From contig JAZKIP010000004.1 in the NCBI GenBank assembly GCA_040384805.1, positions 118,954-168,553 on the forward strand: a stretch of DNA of 49,600 bases, written 5' to 3'. The DNA comes from Patescibacteria group bacterium (GTDB lineage Bacteria; Patescibacteriota; Minisyncoccia; Phycocordibacterales; UBA9973). The translations under genes and the position numbers were made by a program. Position 1 is the first letter of the stretch, and the number at the start of each line of letters is the position of its first letter. Under the pieces are notes generated by a model, which saw nothing but the letters and a program-made list of their open reading frames with translations, was not told the DNA's origin and made no database searches. Below, in pieces: positions 22,626-38,979 of this stretch.

Positions 22626-22628
22626 GAA

Positions 22629-22663: not shown

Positions 22664-22902
22664 ATGATTCCGGCTTTCTTGAGGACTGCGTAGGCTCCAT
22701 GCTTGTTGATGGTCTTGATCGCCTGGGTTGAAAGGGTAAGAGGGAAGTACTTTTTAAGCTCCGGAACATAGATGCGCTTCTTCTGGAGATTCGGATATTT
22801 GCGAACCATGCCTGTCGGGTTGAATTTGGTGGCACGAACAACGTTGGAGTATCCTCCCGCGACCAATGAGCCCTTTTTAGTTATCGCGCAGACTTTCGCC
22901 AT
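22657..22902 (-). CDS. rpmB: 50S ribosomal protein L28
   Basis: MAKVCAITKK...PNLQKKRIYVPE...LSTQAIKTI. Confidence 0.9.
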   Translation of the reverse strand: MAKVCAITKKGSLVAGGYSNVVRATKFNPTGMVRKYPNLQKKRIYVPELKKYFPLTLSTQAIKTINKHGAYAVLKKAGIIK

Positions 22903-22943
22903 AGATGAGACGTATGCTATCATATCTAATAGAGGAATGCAAT

Positions 22944-23220
22944 CCCGTTAGAGATGTCTCATGTTTTATTACACCTATATATTAAAAAGCAAGAAGGATG
23001 GTAGAATTTACACGGGGAGTACAGGAAACCTACGGGAGCGCCTTACTCAACACAATAACGGTGAATCTCAATATACGAATAGATAAAGGCCCATTTATTC
23101 TTATTTATTACGAAGCATGTATGTCAAAACAAAAAGCCCGGTCGAGAGAATTATATTTAAAATCAGGTATGGGCAAGCGCTATCTCAAAAATAGATTAGG
23201 CGCTCCCTATCTCTAACGGG
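22944..23220. mobile_element. 277-bp element with 12-bp terminal inverted repeats carrying a GIY-YIG gene
   Basis: CCCGTTAGAGAT ... ATCTCTAACGGG, flanked by AT on both sides; related ends at 33131 and 37681-37798. Confidence 0.75.
22961..23216 (+). pseudogene. Frameshifted stand-alone GIY-YIG nuclease (UPF0213-like)
   Basis: MFYYTYILKSKKDGRIYTGSTGNLRERLTQHN stops at 23086. It continues in another frame as DKGPFILIYYEACMSKQKARSRELYLKSGMG, with one extra base near 23080. Confidence 0.85.
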
Positions 23221-23871
23221 ATGCAAGTCATCGATCCTATTAATGGAATATTCTATGTGTGTGTCCTCATTATGTCCGTTGTTATTCATGAATTCGCGCA
23301 TGGATACGTAGCATACAGGTACGGTGATCAAACTGCGCGAGCAGCAGGACGGCTGACGCTTAATCCGCTCAAACATCTTGACCTTTTCGGGTCGGTTATT
23401 CTGCCCTTGCTTCTGATACTCATGCAGGCGGGCTTTGTCATCGGCTGGGCGCGACCTGTCCCTTATAATCCGCGGAATCTGCGCGGCGGGCGGAAAAGCG
23501 TTATCATGGTGTCTCTCGCAGGCATTATCGCCAACGTCCTTATAGCGGTTATTTTCGGTCTTCTTATAAGATTCGGTTTTTCTTTTGATATACTGGCATC
23601 TGATTCCAATCCTCTTGGGATGCATCCATTCTACGTGATCGCAAGCATTATTGTTTTTACCAATCTTGTTCTTGCTGTATTCAATATTATATCGATTCCT
23701 CCGCTTGATGGGTCAAAAGTCCTTTTTTCTCTTCTGCCAGCGCGCTTGCGATTCATCGAGAACTTTTTAACGCAATGGGGCATGTTCCTTCTTCTTTTAT
23801 TTATCATCTTTCTCTGGTCACGTATCGAGCCGATCATATCCGTACTATTTTCCCTTATCACCGGTCTTTAA
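23221..23871 (+). CDS. Site-2 protease (peptidase M50)
   Basis: HEFAH, GRLTLNPLKH, GWARPVP and NIISIPPLDG. Confidence 0.95.
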   Translation: MQVIDPINGIFYVCVLIMSVVIHEFAHGYVAYRYGDQTARAAGRLTLNPLKHLDLFGSVILPLLLILMQAGFVIGWARPVPYNPRNLRGGRKSVIMVSLAGIIANVLIAVIFGLLIRFGFSFDILASDSNPLGMHPFYVIASIIVFTNLVLAVFNIISIPPLDGSKVLFSLLPARLRFIENFLTQWGMFLLLLFIIFLWSRIEPIISVLFSLITGL

Positions 23872-23941
23872 CAGCATAAGTTATCCTATCGGGCGCGATG
23901 GAGTTATCTTGTTCCATTAGGTATACTATTATATATAACCC

Positions 23942-25936
23942 ATGAAACTTTTATCCGGAAAATTCCTTCGATATTGTATTCTTGTTCTGCTGTGTACGGC
24001 AGCATTTCATGTTCGGGCCTCGATTATCGACGGCACCATCGACCCGGCAAATCATACCGCACAGGTCTGCGAATTAACAGTGTGCACCGTAACGCCGACA
24101 AGTTCGGTCAACTTTGGGTATTTTACCGATCCGGCTTCTAATCCTGCCACAACCAATGTTCATGTTCTCGATACGGAACTTACGGGCTTTATATGGGGCG
24201 AATCATTCGGGTGGACAGTTCTTAACTGCGCCGATACGACAAGCGGCTGCTCGGCCACAAACGGCAATTTCAAGGTAACGAACGATTATAATGGAAATCT
24301 TTCCGGCTATGCGTGGGGCGACACTGGCGGGTGGATTAGTTTTTGGTGCAACAATGATCCTCTTACCGAACAATGCGCAAGCAATGGGAATTTCAGAGTT
24401 ACGATAAATTCTTCAGGAGAATTTTCAGGCTACGCATGGAGCCAGAATTTCGGCTATATCAAATTCGACTGTACGCTTGGTTCTGATTACTGCGTCAAGA
24501 CTGACTGGCGTCCCCGCAATGCGCGCCCTGCCTGCAGCGACGGTATCGACAATGACAGCGACGGCCTCATCGACAGCGGCGACAGCGGCTGTCTGAATAA
24601 TGGATCATACGATCCGACTGACAGTCAGGAGTTTATTTCAAGCGGCGGAGGCGGAGGGGGAAGTACAGGTCCAACACCGATACCGCCATCAGGTCCCGGA
24701 ACTCCGCCGGTAATACCGGGCGGTACGGTGACTCCTCCGATAAGCACTCCTCCGGGCGGCACGACGCCGGGAGATAATAATCCTCCGCCGACACAGGGAG
24801 ACCCGACAGATACGATCCCCGGCGACACGCCGGGAAGCGGAGATCCGGGCGAAAATGGCGATACGAATACAGGGAACGGAGAGACGATCGACACGCGAAT
24901 CATAGATGCAATCCCTCTTCTTTCCCCGGAAGCGCGAAGAACTCTTATTGATATCTTGTCCGCCATAAAGGAATTCCTCTCTACGAGGATAGGAGACCTG
25001 ATTGCAAGAACCATTACTCTCGTCGGCGCGCTCGCGGGAATTGTCGGCATCATTGCAACAGGAATATTCGCCAATCCTCTGACATTTTCTGAAATATTCC
25101 TGATTCCGTTCCGGCTTTGGAGCCTGCTTCTTGCCGCTTTCGGCCTTAAGAAGCGCAACCGCCCATGGGGAACGGTCTATGACAGCGTTACCAAGCAGCC
25201 TCTTGATCCGGCATATGTGATTCTTCAGGATCTTGAAGGCAATGAAGTAGCCACATCGATTACCGACATTGACGGTCGGTACGGATTCTTGGTTCCTCCC
25301 GGCACATATAGGATGGTCGCTCATAAGACCAATTACGAATTTCCTTCGAAGAATCTCTTGGGCAAGGCGAGAGATGAACTTTATGGGGATCTGTATTTCA
25401 ATGACATCATCACTGTCGTTGAAGGCGGAGTGATTACCAAGAATATTCCTCTTGACCCTCTTCATTTCGACTGGAATGAATTTGCCAAAAGAGATCAGAA
25501 TCTGATGAAATTCTATTCGCGCCGGGATGTTTTCCTTGTCCGGCTCGCCAATATTCTCTTCTGGCTCGGCTTCATCGTTACCATCATCGCCGTCATCGTA
25601 ACGCCGAGGACGTATAACATCATTACATTGGCTGTCTATGTTCTTCTCTTCATACTTAAGCATACGATTCTCAAGCCGCGGCCATTCGGAACGGTCACTT
25701 ATCCAGACGGTACTCCTCTGTCATTCGCTATTATGCGCATATACCAGAACGGTACCGATCATGAAATTGCCCATAAGGTTACAGATCAGACCGGCAGATA
25801 TTATGCTCTCATCCCTAACGGTACATATTATGTAAAGATAGACAAGAAGAATCCTGATGCAAGCTACACCCCTGTTTACACATCTCTTCCGATTGAAGTT
25901 ACCAAAGGCTATATAAACAAAGCATTTAAGCTTTAA
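23942..25936 (+). CDS. Large cell-surface/membrane protein with GYAW repeats, Pro/Gly linker and carboxypeptidase-regulatory-like domains
   Basis: Signal peptide; three G(F/Y)(I/A)W...G(W/Y) repeats; CSDGIDNDSDGLID; TM segments; GTVYDSVTKQPL...TDIDGRY and TDQTGRY. Confidence 0.75.
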   Translation: MKLLSGKFLRYCILVLLCTAAFHVRASIIDGTIDPANHTAQVCELTVCTVTPTSSVNFGYFTDPASNPATTNVHVLDTELTGFIWGESFGWTVLNCADTTSGCSATNGNFKVTNDYNGNLSGYAWGDTGGWISFWCNNDPLTEQCASNGNFRVTINSSGEFSGYAWSQNFGYIKFDCTLGSDYCVKTDWRPRNARPACSDGIDNDSDGLIDSGDSGCLNNGSYDPTDSQEFISSGGGGGGSTGPTPIPPSGPGTPPVIPGGTVTPPISTPPGGTTPGDNNPPPTQGDPTDTIPGDTPGSGDPGENGDTNTGNGETIDTRIIDAIPLLSPEARRTLIDILSAIKEFLSTRIGDLIARTITLVGALAGIVGIIATGIFANPLTFSEIFLIPFRLWSLLLAAFGLKKRNRPWGTVYDSVTKQPLDPAYVILQDLEGNEVATSITDIDGRYGFLVPPGTYRMVAHKTNYEFPSKNLLGKARDELYGDLYFNDIITVVEGGVITKNIPLDPLHFDWNEFAKRDQNLMKFYSRRDVFLVRLANILFWLGFIVTIIAVIVTPRTYNIITLAVYVLLFILKHTILKPRPFGTVTYPDGTPLSFAIMRIYQNGTDHEIAHKVTDQTGRYYALIPNGTYYVKIDKKNPDASYTPVYTSLPIEVTKGYINKAFKL

Positions 25937-25950
25937 GAACTGTCAGAGTA

Positions 25951-25981
25951 AAGTCCCCCGACGTGGCACGTCGGGGGACTT
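25951..25981. terminator. GC-rich hairpin / terminator
   Basis: aagtcccccgacgtg-g-cacgtcgggggactt. Confidence 0.65.
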
Positions 25982-26043
25982 GCAATTTACACATGGGTGT
26001 AGTAAAGTACTACAACTAGTCCAGAGCGGCTATTTTTTAAATC

Positions 26044-26472
26044 ATGCCTACGATCAATCAATTGGTTCGCAAGAGCCGAAAAATCACAAAAAGAAAGTCA
26101 AAAGCCGTAGCTCTTGCCCGCGGTTTTAATTCGATCAAGAACAAGCCGGTATTTTATCCCGCACCATTTAAGCGTGGCGTCTGTACGAAAGTCTCGACAA
26201 CGACCCCGAAAAAGCCTAACTCCGCTCTCCGAAAGATCGCCCGCGTACGTTTGACGAACGGCATGGAAGTGACCGCATATATCCCGGGAGAAGGCCACAA
26301 CCTTCAGGAACACTCAGTTGTCATGATCCGCGGCGGCCGTGTGAAGGACTTGATCGGCGTACGATATCACATCGTTCGCGGACGTCTTGATGCCACAGGC
26401 GTCGACAAGCGACGACAGTCCCGAAGCCTCTATGGAGCGAAGACTCCTAAGAAAGAGGGAGCAAAGAAATAA
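26044..26472 (+). CDS. rpsL: 30S ribosomal protein S12
   Basis: [19 protein letters not shown] and GHNLQEHS. Confidence 0.99.
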
Positions 26473-26658
26473 TTTAGAAAAATAATGAAGCGAAGCGGAA
26501 TATATTTTTCTTGATCCGCCAAACAAATTTATTGATTATACTAGGAAGATGTGATAGGGTAATGTGAGTATTTAATGTATCAAGAATAATATAAAGTAAT
26601 ATATAAATTTGGGGCGGATAACGATTTTTATAGTCGTTCCTCCTTAAAAATCAGTCAT

Positions 26659-27129
26659 ATGCGACGAAAAATCAAAAACCGAAATAGTGTAGACGCTGAT
26701 ATTGCCTATAACTCGCAGAAGCTTGCGAAGTTCATCAATAACATCATGCAGCACGGCAAGAAAGAAACTGCACGCAAAGCTGTGTACATGGCTTTTGATA
26801 TCATCAAAGACAAGACAGGTAATCCAAATCCTCTTGAAGTTTTCGATACTGCTATCAAGAATGCAGGACCCATGGTAGAAGTCCGTTCACGACGCATCGG
26901 AGGCGCAAACTATCAGGTTCCCCGCGAAGTCCGTCCGGAACGAAGAACAGCATTAGCTATGCGATGGATCATCGAAGCCGCCCGCAATAAGAAAGGGGCT
27001 CCGATCCACCAGAAGCTTGCCGAAGAATTGATACTTGCTTCTAAAAATGAAGGTATCGCGGTCAAAAAGCGCGATGACACTCATAAGATGGCGGAATCAA
27101 ACAAGGCATTCGCTCACTTTGCCTGGTAA
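26659..27129 (+). CDS. rpsG: 30S ribosomal protein S7
   Basis: EVRSRRIGGANYQVP and HKMAESNKAFAHF. Confidence 0.99.
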   Translation: MRRKIKNRNSVDADIAYNSQKLAKFINNIMQHGKKETARKAVYMAFDIIKDKTGNPNPLEVFDTAIKNAGPMVEVRSRRIGGANYQVPREVRPERRTALAMRWIIEAARNKKGAPIHQKLAEELILASKNEGIAVKKRDDTHKMAESNKAFAHFAW

Positions 27130-27140
27130 TCATAAACGAA

Positions 27141-27170
27141 AACAAAAATCCCCGAGAGGGGATTTTTGTT
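27141..27170 (+). terminator. Intrinsic terminator between rpsG and fusA
   Basis: aacaaaaatcccc-gaga-ggggatttttgtt. Confidence 0.75.
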
Positions 27171-27224
27171 GCAAAATTAAGCCGTATGTTGTATATTCTA
27201 GGCACACAAGACATGAGAGTGTCT

Positions 27225-27254
27225 CCCGCCCGAACGACTGTTCAGTCGGGCAGG
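27225..27254. repeat. Short GC-rich palindromic element in the fusA leader
   Basis: cccgcccgaacgactgttcagtcgggcagg. Confidence 0.55.
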
Positions 27255-27282
27255 TTTTTATTTTTAGTCATTAATTATACAT

Positions 27283-29424
27283 ATGGAAAGAGATTATCCC
27301 TTAGCAAAAGTTAGAAATTTCGGAATTATCGCTCACATTGATGCGGGCAAGACGACGTCAACCGAGCGCGTGCTCTTTTATACGGGTCTTGTGCATAAGA
27401 TCGGCGAAGTGCATGACGGAGAGACGACGACAGACTGGATGGAACAGGAGCGCGAGCGCGGCATCACGATTACGTCAGCGGCCGTTACATGCTTCTGGAC
27501 GCCGACCTATGCTCCGAATGACAAGTCAAAGAAGCATCGTTTCAATATTATTGATACTCCCGGACACATCGACTTTACTGTTGAGGTGAAGCGGTCTCTT
27601 CGCGTGCTTGACGGCGCAGTCGTCGTGTTTGATGGCGTGGCCGGCGTTGAGCCTCAATCGGAAACGAACTGGCGCTATGCCGATGAGGCCAACGTTCCCC
27701 GTATCTGCTTCATCAACAAGCTTGACCGCACGGGCGCGTCCTTCGAGCACTCCTACAAGACGATCCTCGACCGCCTGACAAAGAAGGCCATCCGCATGCA
27801 GATCCCGATCGGACTTGAAGAAAACCATGAAGGCGTCGTCGATCTCCTTAAAATGAAGGCGTACTATTTCGAAGGCAATATGGGCAGTACGGTCGTCGAA
27901 AAGGAAATCCCCGAAGAGCTCAAGGCTGACGCCGAGAAATATCACGCAGAACTTATCGAAAAAATCGTCGAACAGGATGAAACTGTGATGAACGATTACT
28001 TTGAAGGCACAATTCCCGATATTGATACTCTGAAGAAACTGATGCGGAAAGCTGTTATCGCCAATGATGTTTTCCCGGTATTCGCGGGATCAGCTCTTAA
28101 GAACAAAGGCGTTCAGCTCGTCCTTGATGCTGTCGTAGATTATCTTCCAAGCCCTGTCGATATCCCTCCAATCAAAGGGGTGAATCCTGACACCGAAGAG
28201 CCTGACGAGCGAAAAGCCTCCGACGAGGAGCCGTTCTCCGCTCTTGCCTTCAAGGTTGCAACCGATCCTTTCGTCGGACAGATCATCTTCTTCCGCGTTT
28301 ATTCCGGTACTGTCTCAGCCGGAAGCTATGTCTACAATCCCCGCACGCGCAACAAGGAGCGTATCGGCCGAATTCTTCGCATGCATGCAAATGACCGGGA
28401 AGAAGTGAAGAAAGTCTTTGCTGGAGAAATCGCGGCCGCTGTCGGACTCAAGGATACGATTACCTCCGACACTCTCTGCGATGAAACGCATCCGATCGAA
28501 TTGTACCGCATTGTCTTCCCGGAACCGGTTATCTCTTTGCGTGTTGAGCCGAAGACGAAAGCCGATCAGGAAAAAATGGGCATGGCTCTTAATCGCCTCG
28601 CTCAGGAAGATCCGACATTCAAAGTTTCAACCGATCCGGAAACGAACGAAACAATCATTGCCGGAATGGGCGAACTCCATCTTGAAATTATCGTTGACCG
28701 CATGAAGCGCGAGTTCTCCGTCGAAACCAATGTCGGGAAACCCCAGGTAGCATACCGCGAGACGATCACCGGAACAGCCGATGTGGAAGGAAAATACATC
28801 AAGCAATCGGGAGGACGCGGAAACTATGGTCACGTAAAGATCAAGGTCAAGCCGATGGACATGTCGGTTGATCCTACTGATCTTCCTAAAAACACCAAGC
28901 GTGAAAAAGGATTCGAATTTATCAATACGATCAAAGGAGGCGCGATTCCTCAGGAATACATTCCTGCCTGCGAAAAGGGATTCAAGGAAGGCCTTGATCG
29001 CGGCGTTCTTGCCGGATTTAAGCTCGAAAACGTGTCTGTTGAGCTTTGGGACGGTTCTTACCACGATGTGGACTCCAATGAAATGGCCTTCAAGATCGCA
29101 GCATCAATGGCTATTCAGGATGCCTGCAAGATGGCAAAACCTGTTATCCTTGAACCGATGATGAGCGTCGAAGTAGTGACGCCTGACAAGTTCATGGGAG
29201 ATGTTACCGGAAGCCTGTCGTCGAAGAGAGGGCTCATCGAAGGTATGGAAGCCCGCGGCATGAACCAGGCTGTCAAAGCCGTGGTTCCGCTTTCTGAAAT
29301 GTTCGGCTACATGACGACTCTTCGTTCGATGACTGAAGGGCGCGCCGGATTCACGATGGAATTCCTTCGCTATGACATAGTCCCACAGAATGTGGCAACA
29401 ACGATTATTGAGTCGCGGAAGTAA
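27283..29424 (+). CDS. fusA: Elongation factor G
   Basis: [31 protein letters not shown] and GSYHDVDS. Confidence 0.99.
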
Positions 29425-29439
29425 TTATATTTGTGCAAT

Positions 29440-29473
29440 AGAAATGCCCTTCTCTTGGAAGGGCTTTCTTTTT
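29440..29473 (+). terminator. Terminator after fusA
   Basis: agaaatgcccttc...gaagggctttcttttt. Confidence 0.7.
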
Positions 29474-29489
29474 GTACATACGTGTACGG

Positions 29490-29699
29490 TTACTTTTTTA
29501 CTCCCTGGTCGGCGGGCTTTTTCTCATCAAAGCCGAGGGGAATAAGGCTGGTTTTCGGCTTTGCCTTCTCATTGGATTTTTGTGAGGTAACATTTCCAAA
29601 AGCAGAGGGATTCCCAGAAGTTGGGGCCTTAGCTGAATTACCGGTGGCGAGCACCATAATAATCATAGCGAGAAGCAGGAAGGGAACAAAAACTTTCAT
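29490..29699 (-). CDS. Small secreted/anchored orphan protein
   Basis: MKVFVPFLLLAMIIMVLATG signal-like start; own TTGACA-16-TATACT promoter at 29776-29749. Confidence 0.5.
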   Translation of the reverse strand: MKVFVPFLLLAMIIMVLATGNSAKAPTSGNPSAFGNVTSQKSNEKAKPKTSLIPLGFDEKKPADQGVKK

Positions 29700-29839
29700 A
29701 AATATTAAAGTTTTAACATGAATAGATAAAATTTTAAACTTCATTACAAGTATACAAAGACTATATATCTTGTCAATACAGGCTTTTAAATCTCCGTACG
29801 TATGATATACTGAGACCCATAACAGTTAATTTTCCTCAT

Positions 29840-30346
29840 ATGCAAAATAAAAAAGGAAATACAAGCGTTATCGTTTCTTTTATCATCGTCGTATGTGTCG
29901 TCGGTCTTGTCGTGTATGCTCTTCTTCATAAGAAAGAAAGAGAAAATCCACTTCAGGAATTGGAGAATTCCTCGGTTGCAGGACAACAGGATATACCACA
30001 GGCGTCTGCTGAGATAAAAAAAGAACCGGCTGCGCCTAAAAAATCTATGGAACAACAAGCAAAAAACGGAGATACATTGATTATGAATTATACAGGTCGC
30101 CTAACAAACGGGACGGTCTTTGATTCGAATGTCGATCCGAAATTTCAACATGTTGAACCGTTTGAATTCACTCTTGGCGCGGGCCAGGTGATCAAGGGGT
30201 GGGATGAAGGCCTTCTCGGCATGAAGGTCGGGGAGAAGAGAATCCTGACGGTCCCACCTGAAAAGGGATATGGCGATCGCGCAGTAGGCGGCATACCCGC
30301 CAACTCTACGCTTATCTTTGACGTTGAGCTTGTAGCTATAAAATAA
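29840..30346 (+). CDS. FKBP-type peptidyl-prolyl isomerase with N-terminal TM
   Basis: YTGRLTNGTVFDS, VIKGWDEG and IPANSTLIFDVEL. Confidence 0.95.
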   Translation: MQNKKGNTSVIVSFIIVVCVVGLVVYALLHKKERENPLQELENSSVAGQQDIPQASAEIKKEPAAPKKSMEQQAKNGDTLIMNYTGRLTNGTVFDSNVDPKFQHVEPFEFTLGAGQVIKGWDEGLLGMKVGEKRILTVPPEKGYGDRAVGGIPANSTLIFDVELVAIK

Positions 30347-30352
30347 TAAATC

Positions 30353-31852
30353 ATGAACCAGAAAAAAGTAGAAAAAGCGAAGCGTTTTTTCCTGCGCAAA
30401 AGAGTGCTTATACCGGCAGCTCTGATTCTTCTCATTGTTATTCTTCTCCTTGTCAAAGGCTCTTCAGATGATACGATTTCTGTTGTTTCTCCTACGATCG
30501 GCGACTTGTCTCAGACAGTTCGCGCAACAGGGCAGGTGACATCGAAAACAGATATCAATCTCTCTTTCAATTCAAGCGGAATGGTGAGATCGCTTAAGGT
30601 TGAAACGGGTGACAAGGTCAAAAGCGGACAGATTTTGGCAAGCCTTGATCAAGGTTCCGTTTTAGCATCTCTTACCCAGGCCCGCGGCGCGCTTGCGGCA
30701 GCCGAAGCGCGCCTTAAGAGGACTCTCGAGGGCTCTTCCAATGAGGAAATAGCGCTTGCTCAAATCACTTATGACCAGACAAAGAAAACACAGGAAACCC
30801 TAGTCAAGAATGCATATTATAATCTTCTTAATTCCACTCCGGAAGCTGTGCCTATAACAACAACTAACGATTATGCGGCTCCTGTGATATCGGGAACCTA
30901 TAATCTTAACAAAGAGGGAATCATCAGAATCAAGACATATATCAATTCGGGAGGAAGTTCAAGTTTTACCGTTTCAGGGCTAACAGTGGGCACGGGAATT
31001 GCCACCACGATGATTCCTCAGCCGATCGGCGATTCGGGCCTTTATATTACGTTTCCTTCCTCGACTGATACGAATCTTACCGAATGGGTTGTTGCTATTC
31101 CCAACAAAAAAGCAGCGAACTATCTTTCGAATCTCAATGCCTATGAAGCTGCCGTTACCCAAGGGGAACTCTTGGTCGACCAAAAGGAAGCCGAACTTGC
31201 TTTGAAGAAAGCCGAAGCTAGGGGCTCAGATGTTGATCTTGCCCGAGCAGATATTACGAGCGCTCAGGGTCAGGTTCAGGCGGCTCAGGCCCGCTATGAG
31301 GATACGATCATCCGCGCTCCAAGTGACGGTACGATTACGGATGTCGCCGTCAAATACGGCGAACAGACGGACTCTCAGAAAACGGCAATCGTTTTGCAGG
31401 ATGTCGATCACCTCTATATCGAAGCCGATATCAACGAATCAAATATTGCAACGGTCAAACTCGGACAAAGTGTCGATATTATTTTCGACGCTTTCGGCAA
31501 TGAGAAAAAGTTCACTGGGTCGGTTGCCCAGATTAACCCGTCGTCTGTCGCGGCCGATGGCGTTGTCAATTACAAGATCAAAGTCTCCGTCAATGAGAGC
31601 GACGACGCTATTCGTCCGGGCATGAATGCTGAGATTACGATCACGGCTCTCACGAAAGAAAATGTCCTCTCTGTGCCGCGGGCAAGCGTTACTGTTCGTG
31701 ACAACGTATCGTATGTCAACGTTATCACAAATGAAAAGAGAAAGACGTATGAAGAACGGGAAATAACGACCGGTCTTGTCGGGGACGGCAACCTTGTTGA
31801 AATACAAAGCGGATTATCCGCTGATGATCGCATTGCGCTTTTCGTGAAATAA
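30353..31852 (+). CDS. Periplasmic adaptor / membrane fusion protein (MacA/HlyD-like)
   Basis: VETGDKVKSGQILA, coiled coil, IRAPSDGTI and IRPGMNA. Confidence 0.9.
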   Translation: MNQKKVEKAKRFFLRKRVLIPAALILLIVILLLVKGSSDDTISVVSPTIGDLSQTVRATGQVTSKTDINLSFNSSGMVRSLKVETGDKVKSGQILASLDQGSVLASLTQARGALAAAEARLKRTLEGSSNEEIALAQITYDQTKKTQETLVKNAYYNLLNSTPEAVPITTTNDYAAPVISGTYNLNKEGIIRIKTYINSGGSSSFTVSGLTVGTGIATTMIPQPIGDSGLYITFPSSTDTNLTEWVVAIPNKKAANYLSNLNAYEAAVTQGELLVDQKEAELALKKAEARGSDVDLARADITSAQGQVQAAQARYEDTIIRAPSDGTITDVAVKYGEQTDSQKTAIVLQDVDHLYIEADINESNIATVKLGQSVDIIFDAFGNEKKFTGSVAQINPSSVAADGVVNYKIKVSVNESDDAIRPGMNAEITITALTKENVLSVPRASVTVRDNVSYVNVITNEKRKTYEEREITTGLVGDGNLVEIQSGLSADDRIALFVK

Positions 31853-33129
31853 TGGCTGACCGGACAAAAATTGAAAACTCATTTTCTCAGAATGTTATCG
31901 TCGGCTGGTTTCTAGCCAAGCGTGATTTGAAGCGCGCCAATATATGGACGACGCTTCTGATTGTTCTTGTCATGACGCTCACGTTTCTCAATCTCATCGT
32001 TGTATCGGGCATTCTTGTCGGCCTTATCCAAGGGTCGGAAGACGCACAGAAGAAATATGCGATCGGAGATATTGTTATCTCGTCCTTCTTAAACCGATCC
32101 GCTATCGAGCAGACGCCGCGCGTTGTCGATATCGTCAAAACCATCCCGGGATACAAGAATCATACGGTGCGCTACACGGGCTCGGCGCGGGTAGAATCCA
32201 ATTATCGCGACACGATCAAGCCGGGGGAGAAGCGTGACGGCGCTGGCGCCATGCTCATGGGAATTGATCCTGTCGAGGAGAACAGATTTTCCGGCATTTC
32301 CAAATTTGTCATCCGGGGATCCTATCTTGAGCCGACCGATGGCGACAGCGTCCTGATCGGCAAGAATCTCCTCTATGAATTCACTCCGATCGAGGCTCCG
32401 GGATTTCAAACTCTTAAAGATGTCTCTGTAGGATCCCGCATAAAGGTGACAGTTGGTAATGCCTCAAAGGAGTATTTCGTTAAAGGGATCATTTCAAGCA
32501 AAGTCGACGAATTCGATACGTCGATCGTAACGCTCTCAAACGAGGTCCGGAAATTAACCGGTCGTACCGATCTTGATGCCGGAACGATCGCCATACAGCT
32601 TGAGGAGGGAACCGATCCTGCGGCGGCAAAGCAGTTCCTGCTTGATAGCGGTGTGGGTGAGTTCGCGCGCGTTCAAACAGCCGAGGAAGCGTTCCCCAAA
32701 TTCCTAACGGATATAAAAGCAACATTCGGGATTCTTGGATCGGCCATATCGGGCATCGGCCTCGTCGTCGCTTCGATTACGATCTTTATCGTTATCTTCG
32801 TCAATGCCATTACCCGCAGGCGCTTTATTGGAATTCTCAAAGGCATCGGCATCAATCAGAAAGCCATTCTTTATTCATATATGTACCAGGCGACGATCTA
32901 TGCGTCGCTCGGCATTATCCTCGGCATGATCCTTATTTTCGGGGTGATCAAGCCGTATTTTGCATCCAACCCGATCGACTTCCCGTTCTCTGACGGTATC
33001 TTGGTCGCCACGCTTTCCGGAACATTGATTCGCGCCGGGATACTTTTAATCACGACAATGATTGCCGGATATATTCCGGCGCGGATCGTGGTTAAGCAAA
33101 ATACATTAAGCGCAATTCTGGGAAGGTAA
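31852..33129 (+). CDS. ABC transporter permease (MacB/FtsX/LolC-like)
   Basis: TM1, large extracytoplasmic domain, then 3 TMs; IGILKGIG and YIPAR. Confidence 0.88.
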   Translation: MADRTKIENSFSQNVIVGWFLAKRDLKRANIWTTLLIVLVMTLTFLNLIVVSGILVGLIQGSEDAQKKYAIGDIVISSFLNRSAIEQTPRVVDIVKTIPGYKNHTVRYTGSARVESNYRDTIKPGEKRDGAGAMLMGIDPVEENRFSGISKFVIRGSYLEPTDGDSVLIGKNLLYEFTPIEAPGFQTLKDVSVGSRIKVTVGNASKEYFVKGIISSKVDEFDTSIVTLSNEVRKLTGRTDLDAGTIAIQLEEGTDPAAAKQFLLDSGVGEFARVQTAEEAFPKFLTDIKATFGILGSAISGIGLVVASITIFIVIFVNAITRRRFIGILKGIGINQKAILYSYMYQATIYASLGIILGMILIFGVIKPYFASNPIDFPFSDGILVATLSGTLIRAGILLITTMIAGYIPARIVVKQNTLSAILGR

Positions 33130-33130
33130 T

Positions 33131-33147
33131 CCCGTTAGAAATATTAT
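33131..33147. mobile_element. Solo left end of the CCCGTTAGA element
   Basis: TAAT-CCCGTTAGAAatattat-ATG between the permease stop and the ATPase start. Confidence 0.45.
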
Positions 33148-33831
33148 ATGATACAAGTAAAAAATCTCACAAAAATATTCCAAAGCGGCGACCAGAGGAT
33201 CGTAGCTCTTAATGATCTGTCTTTTACTGTTCCCGAAGGGCAGTTCTTGACTATTACTGGAAAATCAGGATCGGGCAAGTCGACGCTCTTATACCAGCTC
33301 GGGCTTCTTGATATCCCGACAAGCGGGGAAGTATATATCGACGGAAAGGAGTGCGTATGGATTCCCGAAAAGGAACGAACGATAACGAGGCTCAACGATC
33401 TCGGATACATTTTCCAGGATTACGCCATACTCCCGTCGCTTACAGCTCTTGAAAATACTATTCTGCCTCTTTTGATGCAGGGGTATAGCAAGGATGCCGC
33501 TCACAGGAAAGCCAAGAAGGCGCTTGAGCGTGTCGGACTTCTTGACCGCATGAATAACCTGCCGAGCCAGCTCTCGGGCGGTCAGCAGCAGAGAGTATCA
33601 ATCGCCCGGGCCATATCTCATGACCCCAAGATCGTCTTTGCCGACGAGCCGACGGCGAATCTCGACTCGGAAACATCAGAGCAGGTCATCAAAGCTTTCA
33701 TTGATCTTAACAAAGAAGGACAAACGATCGTCATGGTGACTCACGAACCTGAATATGCAAAGATGGCTGACCGGACAATCACCATGGCTGACGGAAACAT
33801 CATAAACGACGTCATGAATAAGAAAAAATAA
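33148..33831 (+). CDS. ABC transporter ATP-binding protein (LolD/MacB-like)
   Basis: GKSGSGKST, LSGGQQQRV, ADEPTANLD and VTHE. Confidence 0.96.
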   Translation: MIQVKNLTKIFQSGDQRIVALNDLSFTVPEGQFLTITGKSGSGKSTLLYQLGLLDIPTSGEVYIDGKECVWIPEKERTITRLNDLGYIFQDYAILPSLTALENTILPLLMQGYSKDAAHRKAKKALERVGLLDRMNNLPSQLSGGQQQRVSIARAISHDPKIVFADEPTANLDSETSEQVIKAFIDLNKEGQTIVMVTHEPEYAKMADRTITMADGNIINDVMNKKK

Positions 33832-33874
33832 AAACTCCTGAAAGCGCTTACTGGTAAGGCTTTCAGGAGTTTTT
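33830..33874 (+). terminator. Intrinsic terminator
   Basis: aaaaactcctgaaagc...gctttcaggagttttt. Confidence 0.75.
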
Positions 33875-33906
33875 CCTCGCTTTTACTTCTATGATATACT
33901 TATTAT

Positions 33907-34704
33907 ATGGAAACATTGTATACAAACAAAAGGTTTATTAAAGCGGCAATCGCGCTTATTATTTTATTATCATTATTCGTTCTTGCATTATTCGTTAATG
34001 AAGTAAAGTCAGGAAGCTATATCGGTCGCGAGGGACAGCCCCTTCCGACCATCACAGTGTCCGGCACTGCCGATGTTATAGCAGTATCGGATCTTGCAAC
34101 GCTTTCTGTCAATCTTACGAAAGACGGAGCAACAGCAAAGGAAGCTCAGGATCTCTTGAATCAATCAATCGCAAAGACTGTTGATTATCTCAAGGGCCAG
34201 AATATCGAAGACAAGGATATCAAATCAGAATACGGCGGCGTGAATCCGAAGTATTCATATGATCAGATGGTTTGTATTACATATCCGTGTCCGCAAAGAG
34301 ATCCGAAGATCGTCGGATATACGGCAACGCAGACGATAACCGTTAAAGTCCGTGCTGCCGACATGGCAAATGAGATCCGCACCGGACTTACGAATCTCGG
34401 CAATACGAACATCTACGGGCCAACCTTTACGATCGATGACGAAGATGTATTTAAGGCAGAGGCTCGCGAAAAGGCTATTACTGATGCACGTGAAAAGGCC
34501 GAAGTCCTTGCGCGACAGCTCGATGTACGTCTCGGCAAGATCATAAACTTCTCTGAAGGCAACAACGGTTCGTACCCAATGTATGAAAAAGCAATGGTGG
34601 CCAATCAGGCCATGGATGCTTCAGGTGCAGCTCCTGCTCCAACCCTTCCAAAAGGGGAGAATACGATAACATCAAACGTTACTATAACGTACGAAATCCA
34701 CTAA
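33907..34704 (+). CDS. SIMPL (DUF541) domain protein
   Basis: TITVSGTA, GYTATQTITV and AITDAREKAEVLA; N-terminal TM. Confidence 0.9.
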   Translation: METLYTNKRFIKAAIALIILLSLFVLALFVNEVKSGSYIGREGQPLPTITVSGTADVIAVSDLATLSVNLTKDGATAKEAQDLLNQSIAKTVDYLKGQNIEDKDIKSEYGGVNPKYSYDQMVCITYPCPQRDPKIVGYTATQTITVKVRAADMANEIRTGLTNLGNTNIYGPTFTIDDEDVFKAEAREKAITDAREKAEVLARQLDVRLGKIINFSEGNNGSYPMYEKAMVANQAMDASGAAPAPTLPKGENTITSNVTITYEIH

Positions 34705-34708
34705 AACC

Positions 34709-34745
34709 AATAAAAATACCCCGCCTCAAGCGGGGTATTTTTATT
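34709..34745. terminator. Terminator upstream of secE
   Basis: aataaaaataccccgc-ctcaa-gcggggtatttttatt. Confidence 0.75.
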
Positions 34746-34773
34746 TGACTTTTAAAAGATTAAAATGTACTAT
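34745..34773 (+). promoter_or_regulatory. Sigma70 promoter of secE-nusG
   Basis: TTGACT-17-TACTAT. Confidence 0.6.
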
Positions 34774-34825
34774 CTCTATATATGCCCCGCGGGGTGTTTT
34801 TTAATAAGAGCTAACCAATCGCACT

Positions 34826-35014
34826 ATGAGCAAAACTGTTGAATATATCAAAGAAGTAAGGGTTGAAATGAAAAACGTAAAATGGCCGACCCAAAGGCAG
34901 ACAATTTTTTTTACGATTGCCGTTTTGGTCGTATCGATCGCAGTCGCCTATTTCTTAGGCTTGTTCGATAAAATATTCGCGAAAGGCCTCGAATGGCTTC
35001 TTCTTATAAAATAA
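34826..35014 (+). CDS. secE: Preprotein translocase subunit SecE
   Basis: EMKNVKWPT plus one TM; lies upstream of nusG. Confidence 0.95.
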   Translation: MSKTVEYIKEVRVEMKNVKWPTQRQTIFFTIAVLVVSIAVAYFLGLFDKIFAKGLEWLLLIK

Positions 35015-35050
35015 ACGCGAGTCCGGACTTTTTCCGGCCTCATTATAACT

Positions 35051-35605
35051 ATGGCAAAACAAGAATTACGTGGAGAAAGAAACTGGTATGCGATCCATAC
35101 CTATGCGGGATATGAGAACGCTGTCTTGCGCAACCTCAAACAGCGTATCGACAGCCTCGGCATGAATGACAAGATTTTCAATGTCATCGTTCCGACGGAA
35201 AAAAAGATCAAGATCAAGGCGGGGAAAAGAGCGGAAGTCGAAGAGAAAGTCTACCCGGGATATGTCCTTGTCGACATGATCGTTGATGACAATTCATGGT
35301 ATGTCGTTCGCAATACGCCCCGCGTGACAGGATTCGTCGGAGCAGGAGTCAATCCAGTGCCATTGAACAAGCAGGAAGTCGAAGATCTCTTCGGCCGCAT
35401 GGATAAGGAAAGCAATGCAGCAGGCAAGCACCAGATCGATGTCGAGATCGACGAGATCGTGCGTATTGCCGACGGTCCGTTCAAGGAACTTGAAGGCAAG
35501 GTGAGCGATGTGGATAAGGAGAGGGGCAAGGTGAAGGTCTTGGTTTCGATGTTCGGGCGCGAAACGCCGGTTGAGCTTGATTTCCTCCAAATCAAGAAGT
35601 TATAA
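35051..35605 (+). CDS. nusG: Transcription factor NusG
   Basis: WYAIHTYAGYE, YPGYVLV, TPRVTGFVG and MFGRETPVEL. Confidence 0.98.
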   Translation: MAKQELRGERNWYAIHTYAGYENAVLRNLKQRIDSLGMNDKIFNVIVPTEKKIKIKAGKRAEVEEKVYPGYVLVDMIVDDNSWYVVRNTPRVTGFVGAGVNPVPLNKQEVEDLFGRMDKESNAAGKHQIDVEIDEIVRIADGPFKELEGKVSDVDKERGKVKVLVSMFGRETPVELDFLQIKKL

Positions 35606-35727
35606 ACAACCATCTAATCCCATCTACTTCGTTAGAAAGGAAAATAGCTCGGTCAATGTATGATTTATACATCTCTCTCGTTATTTTCTTTTCTGCCTCA
35701 TATCTGGAATTATCTGACTGTTTATAA
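35600..35727. repeat. 128-bp rod-like inverted-repeat element between nusG and rplK
   Basis: TTATAAACA/TGTTTATAA ends, AGAAAGGAAAATAGC/GTTATTTTCTTTTCT and ATGTAT/ATACAT. Confidence 0.6.
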
Positions 35728-35833
35728 AAATGAGGGATTTTTCATTTCCTAAATAATGTTTGATTTCCAAGCCTAATTGTGTTACATTACCTCTGTTACG
35801 CTACGCTTCAATTAATATACCTATAAAACTTAT

Positions 35834-36259
35834 ATGGCAGCTAAAAAAATCACTAAAAAAGTAAAACTACAAATCCCGGCGGCAAAGGCAACGCCAGCGC
35901 CGCCACTTGGACCGGCGCTTGGTCAGGCGGGAGTCAATATCGCCGAATTCTGCCAGAAATTCAATGCAATGACTCAGTCAATGGCAGGCGAGATTGTCGG
36001 ATGCGTCATTTCCGTCTTTGAAGACCGCACGTATGACATCAAGGTCAAGACTCCTCCTGTTGCAGGACTTATCTTCAAGGCCGCAGGCATTGAAAAGGGT
36101 TCTGGCAAGCCGAATACCTCAAAGGTAGGCAAGATTACGAAAGATCAGGTTCGCGCGATCGCCGAGAAGAAAATGGTAGACCTCAATGCCAAGAATATAG
36201 AAGGTGCGATGAAGATCGTCGAAGGTTCAGCACGCTCAGCAGGCATTACTGTCGTTTAA
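35834..36259 (+). CDS. rplK: 50S ribosomal protein L11
   Basis: [19 protein letters not shown] and GSARSAGI. Confidence 0.99.
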
Positions 36260-36260
36260 T

Positions 36261-36302
36261 ATACAAAATAAAATCTCCCGCGAGGGAGATTTTATTTTGT
36301 AT
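36261..36302 (+). terminator. Terminator directly after rplK
   Basis: atacaaaataaaatctccc-gcga-gggagattttattttgtat. Confidence 0.8.
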
Positions 36303-36318
36303 GAAATATATTTTATCT

Positions 36319-36960
36319 ATGGAATCAATTTCATTCAAAGATCATAAGAAAATCCTTATCTGTCTCACGCTTTACATCACATCACTCTTTGCGGCCAATA
36401 CGCTTGGCATCAAGTTGATGCCGTTTCTTTTCGGAACTCATTTATCCGTCGGTGTGTTCTGTTTTCCGATCGTTTTCATTATGACCGATGTCATCGGTGA
36501 GATTTACGGCAAAAAAATGGCCAAACAATTTGTTCTCGCGGGTGTTATAAGCATACTCCTGTTTCTTCTTTATTCATTCGTATCGGCTGTTGTTCCCTGG
36601 GCCCGAGAAGGTCTCTGGGCGCGTGACGGATGGAATCAGATCTTCGGATTAAGTGCCCGGATATCCATCGCGTCTCTTGTCGCATTTGCCGTTGCCGAGT
36701 ATCAGGATGTCATTTCGTTCTTTTTCTTCAGGAAATATACCGGCAAGAAGCATTTCTGGCTTCGTTCCAATCTTTCCAATATCTGGTCCCAGCTTCTCGA
36801 CACCGTCCTCTTTATGATCATCGCGTTCCTCGGCATCTATCCTTTCCATACCATTCTTCTCCTCATTATTCCATGGTGGCTATTTAAAGTCGTAATGGGA
36901 TTCTGCTATACTCCGCTTTCATATCTTGCCATTGCTATTCTCCGACCCAAAGAAAAATAA
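36319..36960 (+). CDS. yhhQ: Queuosine precursor transporter family (YhhQ/Vut_1/DUF165)
   Basis: FPIVFIMTDVIGEIYG, RISIASLVAF and WLRSNLSNIWSQLLDT. Start at 36319 or 36301. Confidence 0.85.
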   Translation: MESISFKDHKKILICLTLYITSLFAANTLGIKLMPFLFGTHLSVGVFCFPIVFIMTDVIGEIYGKKMAKQFVLAGVISILLFLLYSFVSAVVPWAREGLWARDGWNQIFGLSARISIASLVAFAVAEYQDVISFFFFRKYTGKKHFWLRSNLSNIWSQLLDTVLFMIIAFLGIYPFHTILLLIIPWWLFKVVMGFCYTPLSYLAIAILRPKEK

Positions 36961-36961
36961 T

Positions 36962-37678
36962 ATGAATATAAAAGCATTTCGTACAAAGATTTTTCGTGAA
37001 AAGGATAATCTCATTTCTTTTATCACATCAAAAATAAAAAAGATTCCTGAGAATTCTATTCTTGTCGTTACGTCAAAAATAGTCGCTTTGTCCGAGGGAC
37101 GTGTTGTCCTTGCTTCCAATGAAAAGAGCCGCGAACGAATCATTCGTTCCGAAAGCCAGTTTGCCATGAAGACCAAATACACATGGCTCACCATTAAGGA
37201 CGGGATGGTATTGGCCTCTGCCGGAGTCGACGAATCAAACGCCGACGGCAAGATCATCCTTCTGCCAAAAGACAGTTTTAGAACGGCATTGCGCCTGCGT
37301 ACCATTCTTAAAAAACACTATAAGGTGAGGAATCTCGGCATAATCATCTCTGACAGCCGTCTCTTGCCCTTACGAGCTGGTGTTGTCGGCATTGCCCTCG
37401 GATACGCGGGGTTTAAGGGCATACGCACGTATGTCGGAACTCCCGATCTCTTCGGGCGTCCTTTGACTATGTCCCGAACCGATAGTGCCGACAGTTTAGC
37501 CACGGCTGCGGTCATGGTCATGGGGGAGGGAGCCGAAAGACAACCACTCGCTCTTGTCACAGGCGCCCCGGTTGAATTTAAGGATAGGATAAATAAAAAG
37601 GAACTTGCCATAGATATAAAGGAAGATCTCTATCAGCCTTTGTTCGAGAAGATAAAGAAGATAAAATACAAAAAGTAA
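36962..37678 (+). CDS. CofE-family gamma-glutamyl ligase (F420-0:glutamate ligase-like)
   Basis: VVTSKIVALSEG, SAGVDESN, IISDS, DLFGRPL, ADSLA and MGEGAERQP. Confidence 0.88.
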   Translation: MNIKAFRTKIFREKDNLISFITSKIKKIPENSILVVTSKIVALSEGRVVLASNEKSRERIIRSESQFAMKTKYTWLTIKDGMVLASAGVDESNADGKIILLPKDSFRTALRLRTILKKHYKVRNLGIIISDSRLLPLRAGVVGIALGYAGFKGIRTYVGTPDLFGRPLTMSRTDSADSLATAAVMVMGEGAERQPLALVTGAPVEFKDRINKKELAIDIKEDLYQPLFEKIKKIKYKK

Positions 37679-37680
37679 AT

Positions 37681-37798
37681 CCCGTTAGAAGCCGCGATCA
37701 TAGTGGTTAAGAAATATAAAAATGAGATCTTATTGCGCAAAATTTACTTTTATAAATTATCAGAAAAGCGAGATGATCGCGATCTGCTTCTAAGCGGG
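37681..37798. mobile_element. 118-bp non-coding MITE-like member of the CCCGTTAGA family
   Basis: CCCGTTAGAAGC-CGCGATCAT ... ATGATCGCG-atct-GCTTCTAA(g)CGGG, with AT on both sides. Confidence 0.7.
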
Positions 37799-38803
37799 AT
37801 GAGAAAGAAAAATTCCATTCCGATACTAGGGAAAATGCTGGAGAAAATTGCGCCAAAGATCGGCGCGAAAGTTATTATCGAACCCGAATGGGGAATTGTT
37901 TCTCAGATCATATTCAAGAACGGCAGGAAACGGTACTCACGTTACAACAGCGTCGATCTTAATTCGCTCGGCGCGTCGGAGATCGCGACTGATAAGGACT
38001 ATGCGAATTTCTTTATGAAGAAAATGGAGTATCCGACGATCGAGGGCAGGAGTTTTTTCTCAGATGCCTGGGCGAAAGTTATACGATCCAATCGGACAAT
38101 CGATAAGGGGTATATCTATGCCCGAAAACTTGGATTTCCGGTTGTTGTAAAGCCGAACAGCGGAAGCCAGGGAACGAGTGTAAGCCTTGTGAATACTAAG
38201 ACAGGGTTTTACCGCGCCATGCGTGCAGTATTCAAGAGTGACAGAGTTGCTCTTGTGCAAAAATATATTGCAGGGAAGGATTACCGAATCGTTGTTTTAG
38301 ATAAAAAAATAATATCCGCATATGAGCGGGTACCTCTTTCGATTACAGGCGATGGCCGGTCAAGCATCGCACGTTTGCTTGAGAAAAAGAAAAGGGATTT
38401 TGGGAAGATCAATCGTGATATTAAAATTGAAATTGTTGATATCCGTATCAAAGAAAAATTAAAGCGGCAAGGGCTGACAATACAGTCGATTATTCCAAAA
38501 GGAGAGAAAATATATCTCCTCGATAATGCCAATCTCTCAACAGGAGGAGATTCTCTCGATGTTACCGATACTATCCATCCTGGATTCAAAAAGATCGCTA
38601 TTGCACTCACCAAAGATATGGGTCTGCGTCTTTGCGGCGTCGATCTTATGATCGAAGGGGATATAACAGAGATACCGAAAAGATATTGGATTATCGAGAT
38701 CAATGCCGCTCCCGGTCTTGATCACTATATAACGACAGGCAAAGCCCAGCAAAAAATCGTCGAGGACCTTTATCTTGAAGTTCTTAAAAGTATGGAAAAA
38801 TAG
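37799..38803 (+). CDS. ATP-grasp ligase similar to the ATP-grasp domains of CphA/GshF
   Basis: FPVVVKPNSGSQG, KDYRIVV, ITGDG, NLSTGG, CGVDL and IEINAAPG. Confidence 0.85.
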   Translation: MRKKNSIPILGKMLEKIAPKIGAKVIIEPEWGIVSQIIFKNGRKRYSRYNSVDLNSLGASEIATDKDYANFFMKKMEYPTIEGRSFFSDAWAKVIRSNRTIDKGYIYARKLGFPVVVKPNSGSQGTSVSLVNTKTGFYRAMRAVFKSDRVALVQKYIAGKDYRIVVLDKKIISAYERVPLSITGDGRSSIARLLEKKKRDFGKINRDIKIEIVDIRIKEKLKRQGLTIQSIIPKGEKIYLLDNANLSTGGDSLDVTDTIHPGFKKIAIALTKDMGLRLCGVDLMIEGDITEIPKRYWIIEINAAPGLDHYITTGKAQQKIVEDLYLEVLKSMEK

Positions 38804-38820
38804 TATTTATATCTTTTTCA

Positions 38821-38927: not shown

Positions 38928-38979
38928 TGGAGTTCTTATTTTTATAATATTTTTATCAATGACTCTCTAAAATGGATGT

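Follow-up and report, generated by a model that had tools for sequence, protein, structure and literature searches.

Why does one short sequence recur directly in front of the start codons of unrelated genes in a member of the Patescibacteria, and why does it once enclose a gene for a nuclease? This question is raised by a stretch of 49,600 nucleotides, positions 118,954 to 168,553 of contig JAZKIP010000004.1 (assembly GCA_040384805.1; in our numbering G000:C4:118954-168553), which is referred to here as the window. The genome to which it belongs (G000) comprises 877,708 bp in 12 contigs, with 44% G+C and 97.8% completeness, and the comparison set consisted of 61 genomes of the genus. A sequence-only reading of the window had proposed a mobile repeat family that is linked to a GIY-YIG nuclease gene. 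Our analyses have shown that the three sites in the window are a dead full-length copy (a), a diverged non-coding copy (b) and a relic (c) of one family of miniature DNA transposons. We read these elements, with a probability of roughly 0.7, as miniature transposons that insert at the AT|G of start codons and whose own GIY-YIG nuclease would be the mobilising enzyme.

Structure and coding capacity of the element

The 9-mer CCCGTTAGA, on which the proposed family was founded, has four exact matches in the window (22944+, 23212-, 33131+ and 37681+) and 23 in the genome, compared with about 7 expected from uniform 9-mer arithmetic. When one mismatch is allowed, the window holds six copies against 7.6 expected, which is no excess over chance, and the 14-mer with up to three mismatches is found 113 times in the genome against 75-94 times in shuffles, scarcely above chance. 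Only exact or near-exact copies are therefore meaningful. The actual unit is the 14-mer ATCCCGTWWGAGAT, which has 18 copies in G000. The exact terminal inverted repeat (TIR) was found in 18 of the 61 genomes, and the reversed control in none of them.

The element is bounded by 14-bp inverted repeats, ATCCCGTTAGAGAT ... ATCTCTAACGGGAT, which are perfect in copy (a) and in most other copies; the inverted repeats noticed earlier are thus real, although their length had been given as 12 bp. Copy (a) lies at the start of a gene for an M50 peptidase and has the following parts.

22937..22941, + strand: left copy of the duplicated M50 start, consisting of ATG and the target duplication (GCA, 22939-22941), identified from empty orthologues with a single ATGCAAGC
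22942..23222, + strand: decayed full-length element of 281 bp, of the class with its own internal ATG, compared with the intact G073 copy
22942..22955, + strand: left TIR, ATCCCGTTAGAGAT, perfect over 14 bp
22961..23086, + strand: N-terminal GIY-YIG fragment, 41 codons followed by TAA (PF01541, 42 bits, one TAA inside)
23088..23216, + strand: C-terminal GIY-YIG fragment in a shifted frame (second PF01541 stretch), with its TAA stop (23214-23216) within the right TIR
23209..23222, + strand: right TIR, ATCTCTAACGGGAT, perfect over 14 bp, whose final AT provides the A and T of the M50 start codon
23223..23225, + strand: right copy of the target duplication, GCA, from the empty-site comparison
23221..23871, + strand: host gene for the M50 peptidase (PF02163), with a start codon rebuilt by the element and an N-terminus that aligns with orthologues

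The TIRs of copy (a) enclose a single reading frame, that of the GIY-YIG nuclease (PF01541), which is broken by TAA at 23084-23086 and by a 1-nt insertion. Both lesions are evident from comparison with the intact orthologous copy of G073 (L064), to which copy (a) is 80.3% identical (224/279, two gap columns). Judged by its reading frame, the nuclease gene of the window is dead.

In relatives, repeat pairs 270-290 bp apart mark intact elements of 273-289 bp, and the sole gene of these encodes a GIY-YIG nuclease of 84-95 amino acids (L007, L008, L009, L064, L069, L072, L074, L075 and L079). No transposase of a known class (DDE, DEDD, HUH, serine or tyrosine) is encoded. The rve and DDE_Tnp_1 transposases were likewise not found anywhere in the four element-rich genomes searched (G000, G012, G016 and G039). 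The nuclease gene has two layouts. In the first (L007, L008), the frame opens at the left host ATG (ATG AAT CCC GTT AGA GAT, or MNPVRD), continues across both repeats and the GIY-YIG domain between them (to ...FLSLTG in the right repeat), and ends in a TGA that overlaps the rebuilt ATG (GGGATGA). Such an ATGA stop-start overlap would allow translational coupling to the host gene. In the second layout (the window copy and G073), the gene opens with an ATG of its own, located 5 nt inside the left repeat, and ends in a TAA within the right repeat.

A homology search with the 95-amino-acid form yielded 2685 proteins at E <= 1e-5 among 2693 candidates, and their source labels, where present, were Pacebacteria, Parcubacteria, Tagabacteria or Patescibacteria. 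Among 32 homologues that were fetched, 28 start with M(N/D)PVRD and 29 end with FLSLTG; the remaining four starts are 86-amino-acid calls from an internal Met. Since the PVRD and FLSLTG termini are the two TIRs read as protein, the repeats are conserved coding sequence across the family. The protein has no Pfam domain other than PF01541 and no DNA-binding domain, and its best relative in the PDB is UPF0213 protein BH0048 (1ZG2, E = 7e-12). The sole NCBIfam match, TIGR01453 (group I intron endonuclease), reaches 17-25 bits against a cut-off of 56 and covers the N-terminal catalytic part only.

Four small GIY-YIG loci were found in G000 with PF01541. Two of them are enclosed by repeats (the window copy and C4:174232), and both are broken. 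These two loci, the intact enclosed copies in relatives and the conserved termini confirm the proposed link between GIY-YIG genes and the repeats. The other two loci in G000 are intact, lack these repeats and lie beside tRNA genes. Repeat-less intact GIY-YIG genes are situated immediately upstream of tRNA genes at L001 (G000:C8:34442-34642), L002 (G000:C4:94574-94786) and L076 (G045). At L001, a second copy of the first ~30 nt of the tRNA-Leu gene, interrupted by a palindrome, precedes the nuclease gene. These three look like a second, tRNA-targeting lineage of the cassette.

With a profile built from 25 copies, 12 non-coding loci of about 120 bp were located in G000. These miniature inverted-repeat transposable elements (MITEs) were shown to be internal-deletion derivatives of the 273-289-bp autonomous form. 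Their interiors are just 41-81% alike while their repeats remain perfect, which indicates old copies from a diverse pool. When the flanks of 12 paired copies were printed out, a single architecture was seen, in constant orientation to the downstream gene. On the left, a flank ending in ATG plus 0-2 nt is followed by ATCCCGTTAGAGAT and then GTG...; on the right, an A+T-rich interior leads to a hairpin (GATAcGGAAG...CTTCCTATC), to the right repeat ending in CTAACGGGAT and to the G... of the host gene. Covariation of this hairpin, which lies directly inside the right end, was tested in 22 copies from relatives. Pairing was observed in 90.1% of cells, compared with 69.1% in shuffles and 36-49% in slid controls, and two-sided changes were present in 48 cells against 16 in shuffles, with compensatory changes at five pairs.

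The family includes the TIR variants CCCGTTAGAG, CCCGTATGAG, TACGTATGAA, CCCGTTAGAAGC and CCCGTTAGAAAAT, and a CCCGT core is common to the variant subfamilies, that with CCCGTATGAG among them. A subfamily of 70-80 bp with GTCCCGTTAGAAAAT...TTTTTAAYGGGAT (G000:C1:103776-103844 and G000:C9:17781-17850; also L047, L053, L056 and L060) ends on the start codons of rplB, rpmB and another gene, of which G000 has rplB and the other gene. ACCT always precedes these copies and the left duplicated ATG is absent; their insertion geometry may differ. A sister element with the repeats ATTACGTATGAAAT / ATTTCATACGTRAT is found at L003 (G000:C4:174232-174432, with a broken GIY-YIG gene) and at L071 (G026, intact). 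It has the same placement on the start codon (ATGG|...|GGA).

Insertion on start codons

Our table of junctions contains 43 paired copies from 17 genomes (11 from G000 and 32 from relatives). A script found that in 33 of them the terminal AT and the next base form an ATG whose frame is open to the end of the fetched flank, and that 31 carry ATG plus an identical 1-3 nt at the left. Three copies that were misoriented by the script (C1_90553, L014 and L027) show the same pattern by eye; the seven exceptions are five copies in G039 together with L009 and L022. The duplications are 1-3 nt long (G, GG, GA, GT or GCA), and because the extra bases on the left and right always agree (GG/GG, GA/GA, GCA/GCA, GT/GT), they represent duplicated target and not element sequence. 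The terminal AT of the element plus the duplicated G rebuilds ATG, so that the host reading frame stays intact. The idea that the 5' context of host genes is replaced without the genes being broken therefore proved sound. As read from these junctions, insertion has been shown to occur at the AT|G of start codons, and the orientation is fixed, the hairpin end facing the gene.

Enrichment at start codons had been named as a test of the family. In G000, an ATG that opens a frame of at least 100 codons directly adjoins 10 of the 11 paired copies, compared with a background of 17.8% among 18,220 ATGR sites (p = 3e-7). The host genes are unrelated to each other; examples include those for the M50 protease, rplB, rpmB, a probable dnaA and a probable murG. 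A second sample was obtained by scanning named genome records with the two arms plus G, and at least 118 stretches matched this query, which demanded a G after one end. Among the matches listed, the records were labelled Lloyd-, Wolfe-, Yanofsky-, Nomura-, Taylor- and Jorgensenbacteria, Paceibacterota, Minisyncoccia and 'Saccharibacteria'. The family is common in the ultra-small bacteria of the Patescibacteria. Sixty copies of the second sample could be oriented by an internal hairpin marker. A gene was present at the hairpin end in 53, a 1-3-nt duplication in 55 (GA in 32), a left ATG in 47 and a frame of at least 100 codons in 44. At L008, L125 and L196, a newer element lies within the ATG rebuilt by an older, diverged element, which indicates that a rebuilt start codon is still a target.

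Two other readings of the junctions were rejected. Duplication of AT, as originally suggested, would need a tandem ATGxATGx at every pre-insertion site and is contradicted by the empty M50 sites described below; the AT dinucleotides are the element's own ends. A duplication of 3-5 nt (ATG...) combined with a right end lacking AT was also considered, but three of the five G039 copies can be read only with an AT-ended element.

Empty sites and mobility

The gene for the M50 peptidase is present in 59 of the 61 genomes, and the loci of 29 relatives were read. Sixteen are clean empty sites with the sequence TATCAT + 13 nt + a single ATGCAAGC, so the empty alleles predicted to exist in relatives were indeed found. 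Three loci are filled at the same point and with the same ATGCA...GCA junction, by an intact element in G073, a MITE of another subfamily in G025 and a degenerate copy in G079. Filled sites read ATGCA[AT...AT]GCAAGC where empty sites have a single ATGCAAGC; copy (a) has therefore duplicated GCA (equivalently ATGCA) and not AT. An ATGCAA direct repeat, which had been offered as an alternative duplication, amounts to the same thing. In six loci (L044, L048, L050, L057, L058 and L059) a second ATGCAA is found 13-47 nt upstream of the M50 start, and these may be relics or footprints of lost elements. In the remaining four, the start codon of the divergent rpmB gene is occupied by the 70-80-bp subfamily.

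Three intact 278-bp copies in G012 (L069, L074 and L079) are 94.6-96.8% identical, with unrelated flanks and with identity bounded by the repeats. Each is located at TATAAT + 6 nt + ATG(G/A) in front of a different gene, and the duplications are GG, GA and GA. The case for mobility is based on the clean empty state of 16 of the 29 M50 loci and on the near-identical G012 copies at unrelated sites. The earlier notion of a mobile family that has both a nuclease-carrying form and MITEs is thereby supported. Such near-identical copies were seen in G012 and not in G000, where interiors are 41-81% alike. Based on these interiors and on the broken state of both repeat-flanked nuclease genes, we conclude that the family is old in G000, and it is probably immobile there now. 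Contigs from three DNA runs of one study over 22400-38400 (covered in X1) contained no empty allele of this population, a result with no bearing either way; the joints in these contigs involved only other organisms' copies.

The other copies in the window

Copies (b) and (c) lie downstream of copy (a) and are described by these features.

33129..33139, + strand: 11-nt relic of a left end (ATCCCGTTAGA), copy (c), between the FtsX stop and the ABC ATPase start
37679..37800, + strand: diverged non-coding copy (b), 122 bp, of the subfamily with TIR ATCCCGTTAGAAGC..., whose TIRs align with the G025 MITE
37799..38803, + strand: host gene for an ATP-grasp protein (RimK-like, by domain match), whose start codon (37799-37801) takes the last AT of copy (b)

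Copy (b) belongs to the subfamily variant CCCGTTAGAAGC and is flanked by the stop of an F420-ligase-like (CofE-like) gene and by the ATG (37799) of the ATP-grasp gene. Its TIRs are extended but imperfect, with one additional base in the right arm. They align with those of the MITE at the G025 M50 start (L068), and the two interiors are unrelated. As single-stranded DNA, copy (b) is predicted to fold with -22 kcal/mol (z = -4.5). The ATP-grasp gene was found in just 11 of the 61 genomes. One of these, G077, retains the CofE-like neighbour with a bare TAATG overlap and no element. The left junction of copy (b) reads TAA|AT without a duplicated ATG, and its pre-insertion state is thus ambiguous. 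Copy (c), a match of 11 nt, is flanked by the stop codon (TAA) of a gene for an FtsX permease and by the start codon (ATG, 33148) of a gene for an ABC ATPase. The motif is present in none of 19 orthologous FtsX-ABC junctions of the genus, which have short spacers instead, and the 11-mer is best read as a relic.

Two further features of the window were noted. A repetitive extragenic palindrome (REP) unit with a REP-associated tyrosine transposase (RAYT) gene occupies 38822-39727 and consists of a 216-amino-acid Y1-like gene (38980-39630) with two inverted copies of ACAAGGCAAGACCTTGT on each side (38822, 38910, 39632 and 39711). At 34684-34803, both strands give overlapping sub-threshold Rfam matches to small RNAs (BSnc120, 28 bits where the gathering score is 114), which are probably due merely to a palindromic intergenic terminator.

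How the element may move

The GIY-YIG protein is the best-supported candidate for the transposase. With this in mind, we propose that it would recognise the element ends as single-stranded DNA, like its Ssn relatives, which are hairpin-guided and single-strand-specific. At both ends the cut would follow ...CGGGAT and at the target it would follow AT, and integration would be finished by host repair or replication.

Several observations weigh against this proposal. GIY-YIG nucleases hydrolyse DNA, and we know of none that joins strands. No intact repeat-flanked nuclease gene is present in G000, and RAYT homologues occur in 46 of the 61 relatives, which makes mobilisation in trans possible. The published SRM motif of Ssn was found in none of 29 elements, and its single match in the genome compares with 1-5 matches in ten shuffles; it had no match within 1 kb of the four small GIY-YIG loci of G000. 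The target itself is not uniform. The five G039 copies, which belong to one other family, adjoin -10 boxes and not ATG (at least three of them directly), with duplications GCT, GAT, ATC, TTC and CA. Duplication length varies (0-3 nt), and the left ATG is absent in copy (b), L009, L022, L072, L075 and the 70-80-bp subfamily. Finally, expression of the host gene is hard to account for where a MITE precedes it: the frame that opens at the left ATG stops 26-115 nt short of the host ATG, so that coupling cannot be the explanation there. The element's TATCTC was also considered as a -10 box for a new leaderless transcript and was rejected as a weak match.

The start codons of G000 offer a context in which such insertions might be tolerated. 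A Shine-Dalgarno-like 4-mer precedes only 6.6% of 787 start-like ATGs, while TAnnnT is found 4-9 nt upstream of 33% of them compared with 10% of all ATGR sites. These figures point to leaderless or Shine-Dalgarno-independent initiation on a wide scale, and initiation of the latter kind would make insertion directly 5' of the ATG tolerable. A -10-like motif was present at 17 of 31 element targets, a modest enrichment over the 33% of start-like ATGs (p = 0.009, with copies that are not independent). In a leaderless gene, the start codon would be encountered by a single-strand-specific nuclease inside the melted region of the promoter, and the G039 copies, which adjoin -10 boxes at their upstream edge, would fit this idea. 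In genomes poor in Shine-Dalgarno sequences and rich in leaderless genes, the exposed non-template strand would be cut after AT. The element would then borrow the promoter and start codon of the host for its own gene, and translation would be returned through the ATGA stop-start overlap. We put forward only tentatively, as a possibility that we still regard as doubtful, the full form of this model: a new class of autonomous DNA transposon, the smallest known at below 300 bp, with an Ssn-like single-strand-specific GIY-YIG transposase that reaches start codons through promoter-melted DNA and takes over the host promoter and start codon.

The nuclease could instead be a passenger or selfish cargo on repeat-bounded DNA for which another enzyme, acting in trans, provides mobility; the most plausible candidate would be the RAYT, a HUH Y1 transposase. 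The window contains a RAYT-like gene (38980-39630; PF01797, and NF047646 at 38.7 bits, below the 80-bit cut-off) and homologues are widespread in the relatives. The element also has a conserved subterminal hairpin, and action on DNA hairpins is established for HUH Y1 enzymes (also cited in passages of Chenal et al. 2025, PMC11893778). We consider this explanation unlikely. The RAYT gene of the window has its own, unrelated palindromes, ACAAGGCAAGACCTTGT, with four copies around the gene and ten in the genome, which makes it a weak rival. To our knowledge, Y1 systems have neither target duplications nor terminal inverted repeats, whereas the element has both. Without exception the cargo is this one nuclease, and its coding sequence includes the repeats. 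Moreover, the distribution of RAYT (46/61) does not follow that of the element (18/61), and G032 carries the element with no RAYT match at 1e-10. It is slightly more improbable that the element is a free-standing homing endonuclease cassette which spreads between alleles by double-strand-break repair and whose repeats serve expression. GIY-YIG is a classic homing-endonuclease fold, and the shared fold, the weak TIGR01453 matches, the occupation of the M50 start by different subfamilies in several members of the genus and the other G000 cassettes, which lie beside tRNA genes with a duplicated tRNA 5' part, would all be consistent with homing. Nevertheless, homing does not agree with near-identical copies at unrelated loci with unrelated flanks, with short target duplications, with the many non-coding derivatives that have homologous interiors or with a protein that is a bare catalytic domain of 84-95 amino acids without a DNA-binding domain; the spread reaches many unrelated genes and is not confined to a cognate allele.

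The position of nearly all copies immediately 5' of a gene, the covariation of the hairpin and the contrast between perfect repeats and interiors that are 41-81% alike would also be expected of immobile cis-regulatory leaders of the host that act as structured 5' RNA. As the sole explanation this is contradicted by the empty orthologous sites and target duplications, by the occurrence of protein-coding versions and by 95-97% identical copies in front of host genes that are mutually unrelated, and we regard it as very improbable. An Rfam search of 22000-39000 at E <= 1 gave no match over any copy. Some copies may have been co-opted secondarily as leaders. Taken together, these considerations favour a start-codon-inserting transposon for which the GIY-YIG nuclease would be the mobilising enzyme.

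Implications

If the nuclease drives movement, it would constitute a sixth catalytic class of prokaryotic transposases, and the element would set a new lower size limit for autonomous mobile elements. It would also represent the missing mobile ancestor of the repeat-gene-repeat units of Ssn, which their discoverers suspected to be domesticated. Whatever the mechanism, many essential genes of Patescibacteria receive a rewritten 5' context and remain unbroken. Gene callers are misled by the element, and protein collections mix 95-amino-acid forms with repeat-encoded ends and 86-amino-acid forms from an internal Met. The elements further mark start codons and leaderless promoters in genomes about whose translation initiation little is known. 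A compact nuclease that recognises AT|G or hairpins on single-stranded DNA could, in addition, serve as a tool.

Relation to characterised elements

Among the papers listed in our literature searches, no description of GIY-YIG transposons, of start-codon MITEs or of such elements in Patescibacteria was found. Bacterial insertion sequences (ISs) with MITE derivatives, such as Correia/NEMIS of Neisseria, have TIRs, short target duplications, deletion derivatives and co-transcription with neighbours. The element resembles them in all of these respects, including a full-length form accompanied by abundant deletion derivatives. It differs from them in that no DDE, HUH, serine or tyrosine transposase is present, a GIY-YIG gene is the only gene and the autonomous form is below 300 bp; in addition, the repeats are coding and the target is a start codon that the element rebuilds. 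With IS200/IS605 and REP/RAYT systems the element shares a subterminal hairpin, probable single-strand recognition and abundant short palindromic derivatives. Those systems lack TIRs and target duplications, both of which the element has, and the element itself has no Y1 gene. The RAYT gene of the window, accompanied by REPs of its own, is situated 1.2 kb downstream.

Free-standing GIY-YIG homing genes of phages (Seg, MobE) have the same catalytic domain and are likewise selfish genes at gene boundaries that do little harm to host genes; the mobA/gene 60 bypass cassette of T4 is an example. In contrast to these, the element has no DNA-binding domain, spreads to unrelated loci and carries terminal repeats, duplications and MITE derivatives. 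Non-intron insertions that encode GIY-YIG proteins have been described in rRNA genes of the candidate phyla radiation (CPR; J Bacteriol 2024, PMC11270868). As far as the passages on them go, they share the phylum and the small GIY-YIG genes with our element, but their sites are within rRNA genes. Neither 'inverted repeat' nor 'start codon' occurs in the main text of that paper, and its GIY-YIG passages describe no target duplication or MITE.

By sequence and layout, the closest characterised relatives of the nuclease are the Ssn enzymes (Chenal et al. 2025, Nat Commun, PMC11893778). The sections of that paper on which we draw report no mobility and do not contain the words Patescibacteria, start codon or MITE. 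They describe nucleases of 94 amino acids whose cleavage is restricted to single-stranded DNA and takes place next to a hairpin repeat. Ssn genes are flanked by this cognate repeat (NTS/SRM), and the authors call the layout identical to that of an insertion sequence. The ends of our element are inverted copies of each other, whereas the Ssn repeats are, from the same sections, self-contained hairpins of 20-30 nt; short target duplications, empty sites, MITEs and strict placement on start codons also set the element apart. Tyr6, Tyr17 and Glu63 of the G073 protein nevertheless stand at the positions mutated in Ssn (Y6, Y17 and E64, as given in those sections), a correspondence by position only and not by alignment. 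Both proteins are bare single-domain GIY-YIG enzymes of about 90 residues, and in both systems, as far as Ssn is described there, the gene is bracketed on both sides by its cognate repeat and many copies of the repeat occur without the gene.

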